DNA of 64,000 bases from Calditrichales bacterium (GCA_965267575.1 OZ254086.1:1632001-1696000), one strand, 5' to 3'. Counted from the first letter of the stretch, positions 9,338-17,847 are shown. The notes: generated by a model from the letters alone, not told the origin. Numbers and translations: made by a program.

Positions 9338-9700
9338 TTACGCAAAGTCATCATCCGCCTTGTTGGGATCAACAGCCTGGTATTTTTTATGTAGACGATA
9401 TGAATATTTTGTAAGAACAAAAATTATGATAAAGGAAAATGTGATCGTAAAGAAATTGAATTCCATATTACCCTTATACATATCGTAAATTACCCGTCCG
9501 ATCATAATTAACATATAAGTGCCTATATTTCCGCTGTCTGCAATCTCCGCCTGTCGTGGGCTTTTGGGGCGTATATAGTCTTTATAGAAAAGGATGAATC
9601 CCACCTGTTCCAAGACAAAAGAAACAATAAAAAAAGCAATAACTATTATATGCGCTTTTCCGATTGAAATTAAGACGGAGATGAATGATTCTGTTAGCAT
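9338..9700 (-). CDS. Putative membrane immunity protein (family D, copy 1)
   Basis: 120 aa with about 3 hydrophobic helices, immediately downstream of toxin tip 9716-10127; near-identical to 15481-15855. Confidence 0.7.
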   Translation of the reverse strand: MLTESFISVLISIGKAHIIVIAFFIVSFVLEQVGFILFYKDYIRPKSPRQAEIADSGNIGTYMLIMIGRVIYDMYKGNMEFNFFTITFSFIIIFVLTKYSYRLHKKYQAVDPNKADDDFA

Positions 9701-9715
9701 TTACTTTACGTCTCT

Positions 9716-10127
9716 TTATGGGTTAACAGCGCGATCTATTGTATGTATCCTTTGCATAAAAATTCCCGGTACATAAAATGGTTTATAATAATTCCCTGCT
9801 GGACCACCGATTTCCCGGCTGGCTCCAATGCTAATGGCAGTTAACAATAAGTCATTAACGACCGGAGCGTTTTGTAAGTAGAAATTATAATAACGAAGCC
9901 CAACCTCTATTGCCTTGCCTGAAGCAGCAGCAATACCTTCACCCGCATAGCTCACGCCAAGCGCAGCCGCTCCACTGGATGCTGCAATGGCGCCAATATA
10001 CCGCCTGATGTAATGGCGGTTAAGCCCGCCGCCAGCGTCTTAAAAGCCGCCTGCCGGCGCTGGATGTCGGGATCGTCGGCTAACCATTGTTGGATGTCAT
10101 CCCAGTCGTATGGGCTTAGGCTGGCTT
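9716..10127 (-). pseudogene. Orphan toxin tip (family E, allele 1): no start codon, 2-bp frameshift near 9990
   Basis: 9935-10127 matches 15252-15442 except for a GC insertion and a few substitutions; unique C-terminus ending ...RIHTIDRAVNP. Confidence 0.7.
9935..10127. repeat. Direct repeat E, about 190 bp (second copy 15252-15442)
   Basis: Base-by-base match from accttcacccgcatag to gggcttaggctggctt. Confidence 0.92.
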
Positions 10128-10130
10128 ACA

Positions 10131-10910
10131 TTATTTAATCTCAACCCTTATCTTCCACTTAGAGCTTGCCTCACTACTCGTTACCTTCAAAAAAAGCTTC
10201 GTCACACCTCTCAGGCGGGTTTCCGTTTTTATTCTGCCATTAGTAGTGGTCATTTCTGTGGTAAACAGTTCTTTTCCGCTCTTGTCCGTAACATTTAACT
10301 GATCGGCTTCTTTATAAAATTCATAGGTTAGTTTTAGCTTTGTTTCGTAACCAGATAGTAGAACTTCCTTTGTTAGGCTGCCTGTTCCAGCGAATTCTTC
10401 GTTAAGTTCACGGTAGAATGTTTTGGAGCTATCTTCAGGAATATAATCATCCTTGTTAAACGAATTACACACCTGTTTTCCCTGTTTATCAAAACATAAT
10501 TCCATCTCTTTGTTAGATAATTGCTTTAAGTGAAAACTTAGCTTGCTTGACTTTTCAAATAATCCACTAAAAGAACCGTCATAACTTTCTAAAACAGTTC
10601 TTTCACTTAAAATCAATTCTTTTCCAGAAGGGTCATAGTGCCAAGTTCCTTTTTCAGTCATTGAAGTATAGGCTCCATTTATTCTTATGTCATTGTCCTT
10701 TAGTTTCCCCGTTAACTCATAGGAACCAATATCAGCGGCAATTGGATTATAAACGAAATACTTGTGATCTGACCTAAAAATAATAATATCTTGATATTCA
10801 CAATAATTGCATATCAGGAACCAGCTTCCCAATAATTTTTCTTCTTGTGGCTCGGAGCACGCAGTATTGCTTAACAACAGAACAAGAAACGCTATTTTAA
10901 TTATTAACAT
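10131..10910 (-). CDS. Lipoprotein, putative immunity protein for the M23 toxin
   Basis: Signal peptide with lipobox SNTA-C, followed by EKLLGSW (lipocalin-like start); ATG overlaps the toxin stop (TAATG). Confidence 0.7.
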   Translation of the reverse strand: MLIIKIAFLVLLLSNTACSEPQEEKLLGSWFLICNYCEYQDIIIFRSDHKYFVYNPIAADIGSYELTGKLKDNDIRINGAYTSMTEKGTWHYDPSGKELILSERTVLESYDGSFSGLFEKSSKLSFHLKQLSNKEMELCFDKQGKQVCNSFNKDDYIPEDSSKTFYRELNEEFAGTGSLTKEVLLSGYETKLKLTYEFYKEADQLNVTDKSGKELFTTEMTTTNGRIKTETRLRGVTKLFLKVTSSEASSKWKIRVEIK

Positions 10911-11740
10911 TATTTTAGTCCTGGAAAGTATGGTGTTGGGTTAACCCAAGTTCTGTTAAGTCTCATCTGCAAATGAATATGAGGCGTTACATGAGGGGGA
11001 TATCCTAAACCTTGTAAATTCACTGATTGTCCAACAATATCACCTGGACTTACTTTTCTCCATCCACCTTGTATTGGTCCTACATAAAGAAGTTCTAATT
11101 TATCAAATCCAATGTTTGGATCGCTAGGAATAATTACAATAGTTGGTATGTCAATAGTTCGTCCATCCTTAAGTTTCTTTGGAAAAGAAGAATTAATAGC
11201 TCTGCCGGAAACAGGTGAAACAATATCCTGCCCATCAACGCTTAGAAAGTCTATTCCGTAATGTAGCCTATTTCCTCTTGGTGCCCCATAATGCCCCTGA
11301 CCTCCATCATCATTTCTAATGCCAAGCCCGGTTGGGTTGGTTAGGGTATTTCCCGCTCCTTGTTCAGAAACCCAGTAATAATACTCTAATGCTGCTACTT
11401 TGCCATCAACAATGCCGCCAGGCACACGCACAAGTCTTCCAACCAGATTACCTGAAACGGTTGTTTCTTCAAATTCCACGCCTGTATTCGCTGAAACATC
11501 TAAATACATTGAGAATAAACGTTCATTCACAATATGCCCATTGAACATGAAAGTAGTTCCCCCATAAGCCGGATGTCGCCACATTTCTGCAGGGCCGGAT
11601 GAAAGTTGGTTCAGCATCGATTCAAAGTCAACATCTATAGGCGAACTGTCCGCCCGCCCGTCCGGGTCATAGAAGTTGGGGGCGTTGTTGCGGTTGAATT
11701 TGTAGGGGTTGGCCCATTGCCGCGCCGGGTCGGTGGTGTG
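10910..11740 (-). CDS. Orphan RHS C-terminus with a LECT2-like M23 metallopeptidase domain
   Basis: HTTDP...PNFYDPDGR core remnant, then a pre-toxin segment, then HYGID (HxxxD), HIH (HxH) and NPTPYF; no convincing native start. Confidence 0.82.
   Translation of the reverse strand, partial: HTTDPARQWANPYKFNRNNAPNFYDPDGRADSSPIDVDFESMLNQLSSGPAEMWRHPAYGGTTFMFNGHIVNERLFSMYLDVSANTGVEFEETTVSGNLVGRLVRVPGGIVDGKVAALEYYYWVSEQGAGNTLTNPTGLGIRNDDGGQGHYGAPRGNRLHYGIDFLSVDGQDIVSPVSGRAINSSFPKKLKDGRTIDIPTIVIIPSDPNIGFDKLELLYVGPIQGGWRKVSPGDIVGQSVNLQGLGYPPHVTPHIHLQMRLNRTWVNPTPYFPGLK
11559..11740. repeat. Diverged third copy of the RHS core/post-cleavage anchor (cf. 12902-13083 and 14149-14330)
   Basis: Encodes the same peptide, HTTDP...WRHPAYGG; differences fall at synonymous positions. 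Confidence 0.88.
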
Positions 11741-11899
11741 TCCCTTTACATCTGGACTTACGCTTTGCTCCAGCAAACACGCCGCCGTTGCACCCACTCT
11801 CACAACTCCAACACCTAGAACAACAGCTTTAAACCCAGCCTGCCGGCGTTGAATGTGTTGGGTTCACTGGTATTATAAGCAAATTGATACTTACAAATT

Positions 11900-12262
11900 T
11901 TAAGACATCATTATGGAAATCGTCAATGGTATCAAATATATCAAGATAACTAAAGTCGAATTAACGATATTAACTTCCTTTTGATGCTTTTCTTGTATTT
12001 TAACTATGCGCCTTTTTGTGAAATACAAATATACCGCCGTCCACCATATTATTAAAAACGGTAAGAAAATCGCCTTATTTGTGGAGCTGTCTTTTGAAAA
12101 ACTAATAAATATTTGGAAATCTAAGTAATATGACAGCAATACATGCAAAAAGCCCACATGAATAAGCATCGCTAACATAACTAAACCAGCAGTAATGAAC
12201 CTAGGGGTTTCATTTCTTCTTGCAATCAAAGGGTATAAAATAGCAAATAAATAACTGTACAT
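11900..12262 (-). CDS. 3-TM immunity protein (family A, paralog 1)
   Basis: MYSYLFA..PRF..H..LP..VYLYF..KRI..IYLIPL pattern shared with 13171, 15852 and 17159; follows toxin tip 12305. Confidence 0.78.
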   Translation of the reverse strand: MYSYLFAILYPLIARRNETPRFITAGLVMLAMLIHVGFLHVLLSYYLDFQIFISFSKDSSTNKAIFLPFLIIWWTAVYLYFTKRRIVKIQEKHQKEVNIVNSTLVILIYLIPLTISIMMS

Positions 12263-16640: not shown

Positions 16641-16656
16641 ATTGTCGAATGCAGTT

Positions 16657-17048
16657 CTAGAATAAGATTGGTAAACAAATAAAAAACAACAAAATGCTAC
16701 CAATCAAATAAGCCAAAACTATAGCCGTACCTCTTTTTTTTTGTTTAATGTGTTCTCCTTTATACTTATCTATTAAACCATCCCATTTGTCTTTATTATA
16801 CAAAGCAAAATGCAGGGCAAACCATACTATTATTAGTATAATACTTACAATATCTCCCGAGGATAAAAAATCAGCTATATTTAGCTTAAATGGAGTAACA
16901 GCTTCAAGTAAGCTCAAGAACGTAAGCATTAAAAAAAATGTACTGTTGCCAAAGTAATGACGACGTTAAAAACTGGAGTATCACCTCTTTTTAAAGCCCA
17001 CGAATATAATTTATAAATTATGTAATCGTACTTAAAAAACATATTCAT
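16657..17048 (-). pseudogene. Membrane immunity-like gene split by a frameshift in a T8 homopolymer
   Basis: ATG 17048 gives MNMFFKYDYIIYKLYSWALKRGDTPVFNVVITLATVHFF*; one extra T at 16931-16938 joins it to ORF 16657-16929. Confidence 0.68.
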
Positions 17049-17158
17049 AAACTACCTTTAGTCATTTGCTGCATCTACCCAATCGCCCCAAAATCCTTCC
17101 ATATCACCAACAATATCTAATTCTCATTTGTCAAAAAAATGTGCTCCGTACTGAGTGC

Positions 17159-17524
17159 CTAAAATTTAACCATTATGATAAATGGAATAATATATATCAA
17201 CGAAACAACAATAATATTTTTTAACGAAAGAATATTTATATTTTCATATTTCTTTAGTAATTGCGCAATCTTTTTGGGTGTATAATAAAGGTATACGCCA
17301 ACCCAAATTAGAATTACAATCGGAAGAAACGAATACTTGTTATTGAAATACTCTTTAGAGAAAACATCGGAGATGGAAAAGTCCCAAAAAGCGTTTACCA
17401 ATGAGTTCAAACATAGAATGTGCAGCAAAACCGCCAAGTGTAGCAGGCCAGAAGTTTCAAACCTCGGTCTTTCGTGTTTCTTCTCAATTAGGCGATAAAA
17501 GAAAGCAAATAAATATTGGTACAT
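17159..17524 (-). CDS. 3-TM immunity protein (family A, paralog 4)
   Basis: MYQYLFAFFYRLI..PRF..NKYSFLPI..VYLYY..IYIIPF. Confidence 0.78.
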   Translation of the reverse strand: MYQYLFAFFYRLIEKKHERPRFETSGLLHLAVLLHILCLNSLVNAFWDFSISDVFSKEYFNNKYSFLPIVILIWVGVYLYYTPKKIAQLLKKYENINILSLKNIIVVSLIYIIPFIIMVKF

Positions 17525-17552
17525 GAATTTCCCTTAAAAACTAAGATTACAA

Positions 17553-17665
17553 TTAATCAAATATATGCTCTGTTATTGAACAATCTGATGCGTATTGAAA
17601 GGTGATATCAAACGCATAATAGGTTGCAGCAAGCGTCCAGCCAAGCGGCCACGATACTAATACGC
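17553..17665 (-). pseudogene. About 36-codon remnant of the hydrophobic toxin tip, allele 4
   Basis: Translates VLVSWPLGWTLAATYYAFDITFQYASDCSITEHIFD*. Confidence 0.8.
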
Positions 17666-17847
17666 GCCCCGCTCAACAAATACGCAGTTCACGCCTCGGG
17701 GCGTGATTGGATTTTTCAACATTTACCGTTCCTGTGCGTCCACCAGCACCCGCGTGCTGCCGTCATCTTCTATCACGGCTATTTTCCCGGAGAGGCCGTA
17801 GGTGAGTGTGCGGGAAAGAGTCCCTTCCTTCATCTTTCATCTTTGCT

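Follow-up and report, generated by a model that had tools for sequence, protein, structure and literature searches.

A carrierless array of RHS toxin-tip fragments and immunity genes in a Calditrichales genome, with sequence breaks inside the released toxin region

Introduction

Orphan rhs-CT/rhsI arrays and the displacement of RHS C-termini are known (PMC2935791, PMC3150448, PMC3967940), and a circular-intermediate model of displacement has been put forward (PMC2935791); MafB cassettes (PMC4287609) and Rhs poly-immunity regions (bioRxiv 10.64898/2026.07.13.738213) have also been described. Here we describe an island of about 8.5 kb (positions 9338-17850) of RHS toxin-tip fragments and immunity-like genes in a 64,000-nucleotide (nt) stretch of a Calditrichales bacterium (GCA_965267575.1, OZ254086.1; G000:1,632,001-1,696,000), called the window below. 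On balance we favor the view that these are the displaced tips of an RHS toxin of Bacteroidota type, its carrier now missing, and that the array has most likely been retained as an immunity bank. As orphan RHS arrays are well known, the overall design is unsurprising.

Like those arrays, the island is a string of core fragments of varying length, poor in guanine and cytosine (GC), with variable tips, a small immunity gene next on the same strand and no export signal. Unlike them, it has no intact parent upstream or elsewhere. In the Enterobacterial model the breaks lie in the core and the tips are non-homologous units, whereas here the breaks lie past DPxG, inside the released region. Modularity inside the released region and an allelic hydrophobic toxin/immunity series have been described for CdiA (PMC9424206, PMC11630599). 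With CdiA-CT and the ionophores of contact-dependent inhibition (CDI), whose immunity proteins are about 30% alike, the locus shares an exchangeable front module, a toxin domain and a hydrophobic allelic series; however, its carrier type is RHS, its front blocks have no shown entry function, and the likeness is one of layout, not of sequence comparison.

Bfe1 of Bacteroides fragilis is predicted to have a membrane region at its C-terminus (PMC13035841) and is lethal when targeted to the periplasm (PMC6692515). The locus resembles the Bfe1/Bfi1 pair (NF053698/NF053699) in a C-terminal membrane-region match, an end-to-end Bfi1 match and the same gene order, but it has an RHS core in front, no N-terminal Hcp-loading region and no type VI secretion system (T6SS) locus, and its scores are far under the cut-off. 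In Vibrio cholerae, sequential displacement builds T6SS immunity arrays in a homology-facilitated manner (PMC5361080), and in esaG of Staphylococcus aureus paralogues recombine at homology blocks (PMC9484751). As in these arrays, old immunity genes stand here behind effector 3' stumps, with recombination at conserved blocks of tandem paralogues; unlike the present locus, those arrays sit behind active effector and secretion genes. Polyimmunity loci share with the island the common orientation, close spacing, several immunity families and the lack of an active toxin, but they are defined as never interrupted by toxin cassettes (PMC3482391), and the island, where tips alternate with immunity genes, falls outside that definition. 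No paper linking Bfe1 to RHS tips or RHS arrays to Calditrichota was found (including the available part of PMC11901371) in literature that covered few subscription papers and no supplements; the tables of PMC3482391 may list the tips under another name.

Composition of the array

The island contains seven RHS toxin-tip fragments, two vestiges and nine immunity-like genes, one of them frameshifted, all on the minus strand. This agrees with an earlier reading made from the sequence alone (the sequence-only reading), which had listed at least seven tips or remnants and nine immunity-like genes on one strand. Its counts of the recurring blocks, which we call anchors, were also reproduced: core end three, post-cleavage block three, DLAN block three, extreme tip four, and block E two plus a remnant. 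The repeats within the window are far above chance (blastn E 1e-14 or lower). GC content is 0.37-0.43 in 1-kb bins across 9001-18000 against 0.50 in the genome. The pieces are, in reading order (aa, amino acids):

17553..17665, minus strand: tip A4, a chimeric stump of the end of tip A (~36 codons), part A2-type and part A3-type
17159..17524, minus strand: immunity A4, 121 aa, three hydrophobic segments
17135..17152, minus strand: vestigial fifth extreme tip, preceding the broken immunity gene
16657..17048, minus strand: immunity gene of Bfi1-like type, from a more distant subfamily, with a frameshift at the T run 16931-16938
16241..16621, minus strand: tip A3, DLAN block (16505-16600) and hydrophobic helical tip without core; Bfe1 C-terminal match, E 2e-5
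15852..16226, minus strand: immunity A3, 124 aa; NF053699 E 1.6e-4, under cut-off
15481..15855, minus strand: immunity B1, an orphan with no tip in front
14973..15442, minus strand: block E and tip C1 (hydrophobic, unnamed family)
14612..14971, minus strand: immunity C, 119 aa, distant paralogue of immunity B (23% identity)
13555..14520, minus strand: module A1, with core fragment ~14247-14520, post-cleavage block 14149-14244, linker 13912-14148, DLAN block 13816-13911 and tip A 13558-13815; no signal peptide
13171..13536, minus strand: immunity A1; NF053699 E 1e-6, under cut-off
12305..13086, minus strand: module A2, with core end, post-cleavage block, linker, DLAN block and a tip A allele
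11900..12262, minus strand: immunity A2; NF053699 E 6e-4
~11745..11863, minus strand: block E remnant (IQRRQA) with a third continuation
10910..11742, minus strand: module M23, with core end, post-cleavage block, its own linker and a LECT2-like M23 peptidase tip
10131..10910, minus strand: immunity D, a 259-aa protein predicted from its lipobox (by eye) to be a lipoprotein, directly after the M23 tip
9716..10127, minus strand: block E and tip C2, out of frame near 9992 relative to E+C1
9338..9700, minus strand: immunity B2, 120 aa, 95% identical to B1

The first half thus runs from the A4 stump and its immunity gene through the vestige with the frameshifted gene, the A3 pair and orphan immunity B1 to block E/tip C1 with immunity C. 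The second half begins with the core, module A1 and immunity A1, and continues with the A2 pair, the block E remnant, the M23 tip with its lipoprotein gene, and block E/tip C2 with immunity B2. The longest core (TIGR03696, 53 bits against a cut-off of 32.5), whose end recurs in A2 and M23, therefore lies mid-array, and the half upstream of it repeats families A, B and C with toxin parts reduced to stumps; there, 1,868 nt of immunity sequence stand against ~1,100 nt of toxin sequence. This suggests two tandem versions of the locus in which immunity genes were preferentially retained. Intact frames are present in eight of the nine immunity genes, and tips A1, A2, A3, M23 and C1 are open as well. 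The tips lack export signals: at the in-frame starts of the fragments neither an N-terminal hydrophobic leader nor a clear ribosome site in front was seen by eye.

Searches for a carrier gene

TIGR03696 detected nine cores in the genome: frames of 142-457 codons hold eight of them, and the ninth, a different core, belongs to a 2,522-aa Tc-type protein. No intact parent with a near-identical core was found at the locus or elsewhere in this one-contig genome (4.73 Mb, 98.2% complete), in which the unrelated Tc-like protein is the only long core-bearing frame. The DUF6443, TEN_YD-shell and VgrG-type models gave nothing over cut-off. TIGR01643 also gave nothing, a weak blank because this model missed the Tc-like protein too, which has an RHS_repeat match. 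The cumulative GC skew of the contig is lowest at 1.32 Mb and highest at 3.85 Mb, the pattern expected for a whole chromosome; the contig ends do not overlap.

A parent-type gene does exist in the same family. Relative G007 encodes a 2,511-aa DUF6443/YD-repeat RHS protein, its core 58% identical to that of the window over 98 aa, within a type II secretion-like gene cluster (names read by eye). As a query against the host genome, G000, this protein recovered core fragments only and no shell; its shell part found the shell of genome G005 at E 1e-109. Across the phylum, cores occur in 43 of 86 genomes, and a second one-contig relative (G011) has eight core matches, all in frames of at most 560 aa. 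The closest named relatives of another RHS protein of G000 carry the label Calditrichota, which points to that lineage for the host.

Outside the island, the best DNA match of the array core in the genome covers 56-71 nt at 78-84%, and the longest exact match of the array is 29 nt, in a dispersed repeat. Reloading of an orphan in Salmonella used 522 bp at 95% (PMC3967940); by comparison the homology available here is too little for ordinary reloading. The sequence-only reading had reported no full-length RHS gene in the array; the core, shell and parent-query searches found none with this core in the rest of the genome, and the lineage has a parent-type gene in G007. That reading's statement that secretion genes are absent is true of the locus, and elsewhere in the genome a single type II/type IV pilus-like cluster lies at ~4.02-4.03 Mb. 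A working tip library in this genome, as it had further proposed, is not supported by these results: neither parent nor shell was found, and the anchors resemble nothing else beyond the short core matches.

Other core-bearing genes were observed in the course of these searches. At 247-257 kb (L001:7048-17241) lie four tandem genes of 260-435 aa, each combining a signal peptide (by eye), PKD, RHS core and toxin tip without YD shell; one of the tips is Ntox33. Intact look-alikes of 418-583 aa are P0136, P0138, P0151, P0155, P0181 and P0192, and such shell-less "mini-RHS" carriers may be a real, overlooked class. At 1,859-1,863 kb (L002:9025-13103) and at L001 ~10,250-11,100, RHS cores follow the C-terminal half of a CBM96 domain; the N-terminal half lies downstream, cut by the dispersed repeat, so that the arrangement looks like a broken or permuted second carrier type. 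The 2,522-aa Tc-type protein belongs to a Tc-toxin-like pair at 84-103 kb (L089:362-18526), consisting of a 3,160-aa TcA-like protein and this SpvB/TcdB/RHS protein.

Breaks inside the toxin region

Breakpoints were tested in five pairs of copies with 200 permutations each. All five showed a single sharp break, and in none did any of the 200 permutations reach the observed score. Modules A1 and A2 are 99.4% identical over 518 nt and then 68% over 258 nt; A1 and A3 fall from 92.5% over 134 nt to 65%. A1 and M23 share 94% over 184 nt and are unrelated afterwards, and E+C1 and E+C2, 96.9% identical over 196 nt, are then unrelated at the DNA level. Immunity genes B1 and B2 agree at 99.7% over 312 nt and at 77% over the last 39 nt. 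In the toxin modules the breaks lie 100-430 nt downstream of the DPDG|R cleavage motif. Along the A4 stump, 12 informative sites of A2 type are followed by eight of A3 type, none interleaved. The fifth extreme-tip vestige matches the end of A2 at 14 of 15 nt (0/300 shuffles); its matches to A1, A3 and A4 were not significant.

Between A1 and M23, the core end and post-cleavage block differ by 11 synonymous and no non-synonymous codon changes, and since all changes are synonymous these blocks were probably under selection in the donors. The two E copies differ by three synonymous and no non-synonymous changes.

Related loci with intact parents show the same swaps. At the Bacteroidota locus L064, an RHS gene of 1,503 aa is followed by an orphan, and the two are 99.8% identical over 1,087 nt, 472 nt of which lie past the cleavage motif; beyond this stretch their tips differ, and a separate membrane gene stands downstream of each. 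A repeat of at least 40 nt inside the tip region was found at 7 of 33 outside tip A loci (6 of the 33 loci being shorter than 5 kb). Orphans start or diverge within the linker at L072, L054, L068 and L065; L047 has extreme-tip stumps and stacked Bfi1-like genes, and L048 three tandem immunity-A genes. The nested anchors are therefore recurrent in this RHS class and not specific to the locus. Block E was also found within an RHS tip region in G005, and it alone of the blocks matched elsewhere: the post-cleavage, linker and DLAN blocks had no match in the outside loci or proteins compared.

Exchange inside the toxin region, which the sequence-only reading had inferred, is supported by the sharp breaks past the cleavage motif, the A4 chimera and the L064 swap on a full-length RHS gene. 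We read the nested anchors as traces left where displacement and gene conversion took place at conserved blocks. Together with its relatives, the locus supplies sequence-level evidence for RHS tip swaps inside the released toxin region, as proposed for CdiA.

Tip and immunity families

A profile built from three tip A copies collected 127 representatives, including the window's own and at least three repeat-driven false matches. The terminal motif lies at most 15 residues from the C-terminus in 101 of the 104 representatives that carry it. A core-like motif is present in 32 of the 127, four of which are RHS proteins of 1,165-2,198 aa. At 33 of 33 loci the gene after tip A matched the window's immunity-A profile at E 0.01 or better; 30 of these loci are labelled Bacteroidota.

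All three window tips matched the Bfe1 model NF053698, weakly (E 2e-5 to 0.016; 14.7-24.2 bits against a cut-off of 315), as did 26 of 74 tip A family members at E 0.01 (best 6e-7). The alignment covers profile positions ~224-307 of 313, the predicted membrane region. The Bfi1 model NF053699 was matched end to end by three of the four window immunity-A genes and by the broken gene (19.8-28.7 bits against a cut-off of 100), whose 3' part reaches E 8e-6. Immunity A4 had no Bfi1 match at E 0.05 and is 41-50% identical to the other three. Among 29 linked immunity genes (31 extracted, two left out for bad boundaries), 21 matched at E 0.01, the best with 32.8 bits. Kinship is indicated, despite sub-threshold scores, because toxin and immunity protein each match their counterpart in a known pair, and the gene order agrees. 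Tip A and immunity A may accordingly be distant relatives of the C-terminal part of Bacteroides Bfe1 and of Bfi1, to which the matches point weakly; Bfe1/Bfi1, so far from B. fragilis T6SS loci, would then take in an RHS tip family that is widespread and has no name.

Compared with 27 outside genes, the four immunity-A genes of the window group together as a single clade (97/95) and are, as judged from this grouping, an allelic series from one lineage. They are 37-50% identical to each other, their tips 75-77%. Four natural tip A/immunity A allele pairs are thus available in one place for tests of specificity and killing mode.

The M23 tip aligns to LECT2 at E 9e-4 with both zinc motifs (HxxxD and HxH); against Pfam PF01551 it scores 19.6 bits (E 1e-3), under the gathering score of 28.7. 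Immunity D has one N-terminal hydrophobic segment and no family match in Pfam/NCBIfam scans. A second hydrophobic pair consists of tips C1/C2 and immunity B/C, and genome G010 has a distant look-alike of it; immunity B and C have a common C-terminal H.K....DP.K motif, which an immunity gene of G010 also carries, and no family name was found for these tips or immunity proteins. The families had been called unassignable in the sequence-only reading. This still applies to C1/C2 and immunity B/C, but not to tip A/immunity A (Bfe1/Bfi1-like) and the M23 tip (LECT2-like).

Other searches gave little. Among 20 proteins compared with Pfam, none of the tips or immunity proteins received a name at cut-off. 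A word-based protein search found no A2 match among 8,000 longer candidates and, for immunity A, only the window's own four proteins, and when the genome was first scanned with motifs from the window, none of 84 stretches was confirmed. In the Atlas, immunity A4 matched only unnamed, mostly Bacteroidota clusters (0.93), and immunity B1 stayed below 0.9. No fold was assigned to tip A: AlphaFold modelled it as a helical bundle of generic type (mean pLDDT 73), for which Foldseek returned nothing at E 0.001, and in VIA the top Z, 8.2, belonged to a designed protein. The predicted complex of tip A2 and immunity A2 scored 0.28 against a mark of 0.32.

Setting of the island and check of the assembly

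The island lies between two neighbors:

17848..19104, minus strand: EnvC-like coiled-coil/M23 gene, upstream flank, a host gene (Pfam Peptidase_M23 E 1e-25 and CC_PcsB; in 9/9 family relatives)
8614..9266, minus strand: RHH antitoxin and PIN toxin (Pfam RHH_1, PIN_3), downstream island edge

The host genes around the island are the EnvC-like gene and a convergent penicillin-binding-protein gene (the latter name read by eye). In four of nine family relatives these two are adjacent, 0-370 nt apart, and in the other five different genes lie there; the island therefore represents an insertion at a variable site.

A dispersed repeat touches the island at two points:

17667..17714, no strand: 48-nt hairpin, left end of a ~420-nt dispersed non-coding repeat, adjoining the first tip stump; four other copies in the genome
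13087..13170, no strand: junction spacer with a shortened trace of the dispersed repeat (22 nt, 91% to the copy at 1,997 kb), weak

The other copies of the ~420-nt repeat, with opposed hairpins, lie at 250.7-251.1 kb, 1,857-1,863 kb, 1,997.0-1,997.4 kb and 4,065.3-4,066.2 kb, mostly at junctions of RHS fragments or beside an Imm53 gene. One locus was scanned against Rfam, with no match.

The assembly was compared with short-read contigs of four runs of one sample, possibly the source of the assembly. The contigs agree with all listed pieces, with no other letters or gaps, and cross the frameshift of the broken gene and several module junctions; depth is about double over the 9.3-kb repeat. A 480-nt repeat is bridged by no contig; for the order of the modules across it we rely on the assembly. 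The contigs also have two loose ends, at 9927 and 16694, which do not occur in the genome and are probably short chance matches.

Discussion

We propose that in carrier-bearing lineages incoming tip/immunity modules would recombine at any shared block (core, post-cleavage, linker, DLAN/E or extreme tip). The old end would be shunted downstream, either by the circular-intermediate model or by homology-facilitated displacement, and gene conversion between paralogues, as in esaG, together with deletion would later trim the toxin parts. By analogy with Bfe1, tip A in each of its four alleles probably harms the inner membrane from the periplasm, each immunity A allele probably guarding against its own tip allele. 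The M23 tip probably cuts peptidoglycan and would be blocked by the predicted lipoprotein, immunity D. The host would thereby be protected against neighbors still firing these toxins. For CDI orphans both a "fossil record kept for immunity" and a "silent reserve" have been proposed (PMC4927057); as no parent was found, the former fits better here. A carrierless array separates these two explanations of orphan modules, which are normally confounded.

Several points weigh against an immunity bank. The array includes a broken immunity gene, the other immunity genes are presumed to be transcribed, and in Salmonella LT2 orphan immunity genes are not normally expressed (PMC3967940). The synonymous bias may date from the donors rather than from the array. 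The Bfe1/Bfi1 scores are far under curated cut-offs, and hydrophobic sequence can inflate weak scores. Finally, a genome 98.2% complete whose ends do not overlap leaves some room for a carrier in a gap.

Alternatively, the modules might be donors that reload a carrier, which could lie in other cells of the population, in sequence missing from the assembly or among the short signal-peptide/PKD/core genes of the 247-257 kb region. Such a live library would account for the five open tip frames and for the identity of A1 and A2 over ~480 nt, which implies recent recombination; reloading has been shown for a Salmonella orphan (PMC3967940), the family has parent-type genes, and G011, likewise one contig, also has its eight cores in short frames only. 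We consider it rather unlikely, given the small homology elsewhere in the genome (56-71 nt at 78-84%, longest exact match 29 nt, against 522 bp at 95% in Salmonella) and the absence of listed joints in the contigs, although contigs drop rare variants. If nothing in the island served any longer, the carrier having been deleted and the whole decaying without benefit, the frameshifts in one immunity gene and in tip C2, the stumps (A4 and two vestiges) and the broken fragments of a second RHS class beside the same dispersed repeat elsewhere would follow; but eight of nine immunity frames are intact while the upstream toxin parts are reduced to stumps, and a neutral relic appears unlikely to us.

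The hairpin repeat could be a recombination site at which modules were inserted in the manner of an integron: it adjoins the first stump, leaves a trace before A2 and has three of its four other copies at RHS or immunity loci, and two modules begin at almost the same core base. Most junctions, however, lack a trace of the repeat, the breakpoints lie within homologous coding blocks, positions 5000-22000 showed no recombinase, and the one copy scanned had no Rfam match, which makes such capture highly improbable. That the repeats are an assembly artefact is scarcely credible: the exact 480-nt repeat is unbridged and the reads possibly come from the source sample, but the copies differ by many synonymous changes, their flanks differ, and the contigs match the listed unique parts exactly.

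Beyond the displaced-tip array kept for immunity, a broader picture can be drawn, which we regard as doubtful. RHS toxins of Bacteroidota and Calditrichota would diversify below the level of the whole tip, with post-cleavage block, linker, anchor and tip each exchangeable, giving a Bfe1-like allelic series with allele-specific Bfi1-like antidotes. Parentless arrays would then be expressed immunity banks and would also form a common stock of donors on which carriers in other cells draw, the shell-less signal-peptide/PKD/core carriers possibly among them.

Further observations

At L019 and L020 (G007 C64), large signal-peptide RHS genes and orphans are interleaved with type II secretion/pilus-like genes (names by eye), a layout that suggests a dedicated export route for this RHS class. 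In G011 (L022:6660-19975), RHS cores are split by an inserted domain (ILEI family) and arrays are broken by transposase-like genes; no long parent was found there. Upstream of envC, at 19935-22000 of the window, lies a second low-GC patch with a 397-aa unnamed protein and a small toxin-antitoxin-like pair. A short frame at 17723-17836 was considered as pre-core RHS sequence and rejected, with no significant match to five parent-type proteins.

Promoter-like sites numbered 37 against 25.6 +/- 6.4 expected, which is near chance and is not taken as evidence. A weak promoter-like match (9/12) lies inside the conserved extreme tip in three copies (17616-17644, 13618-13646 and 12371-12399); if real, it would explain why tip stumps are kept ahead of immunity genes.

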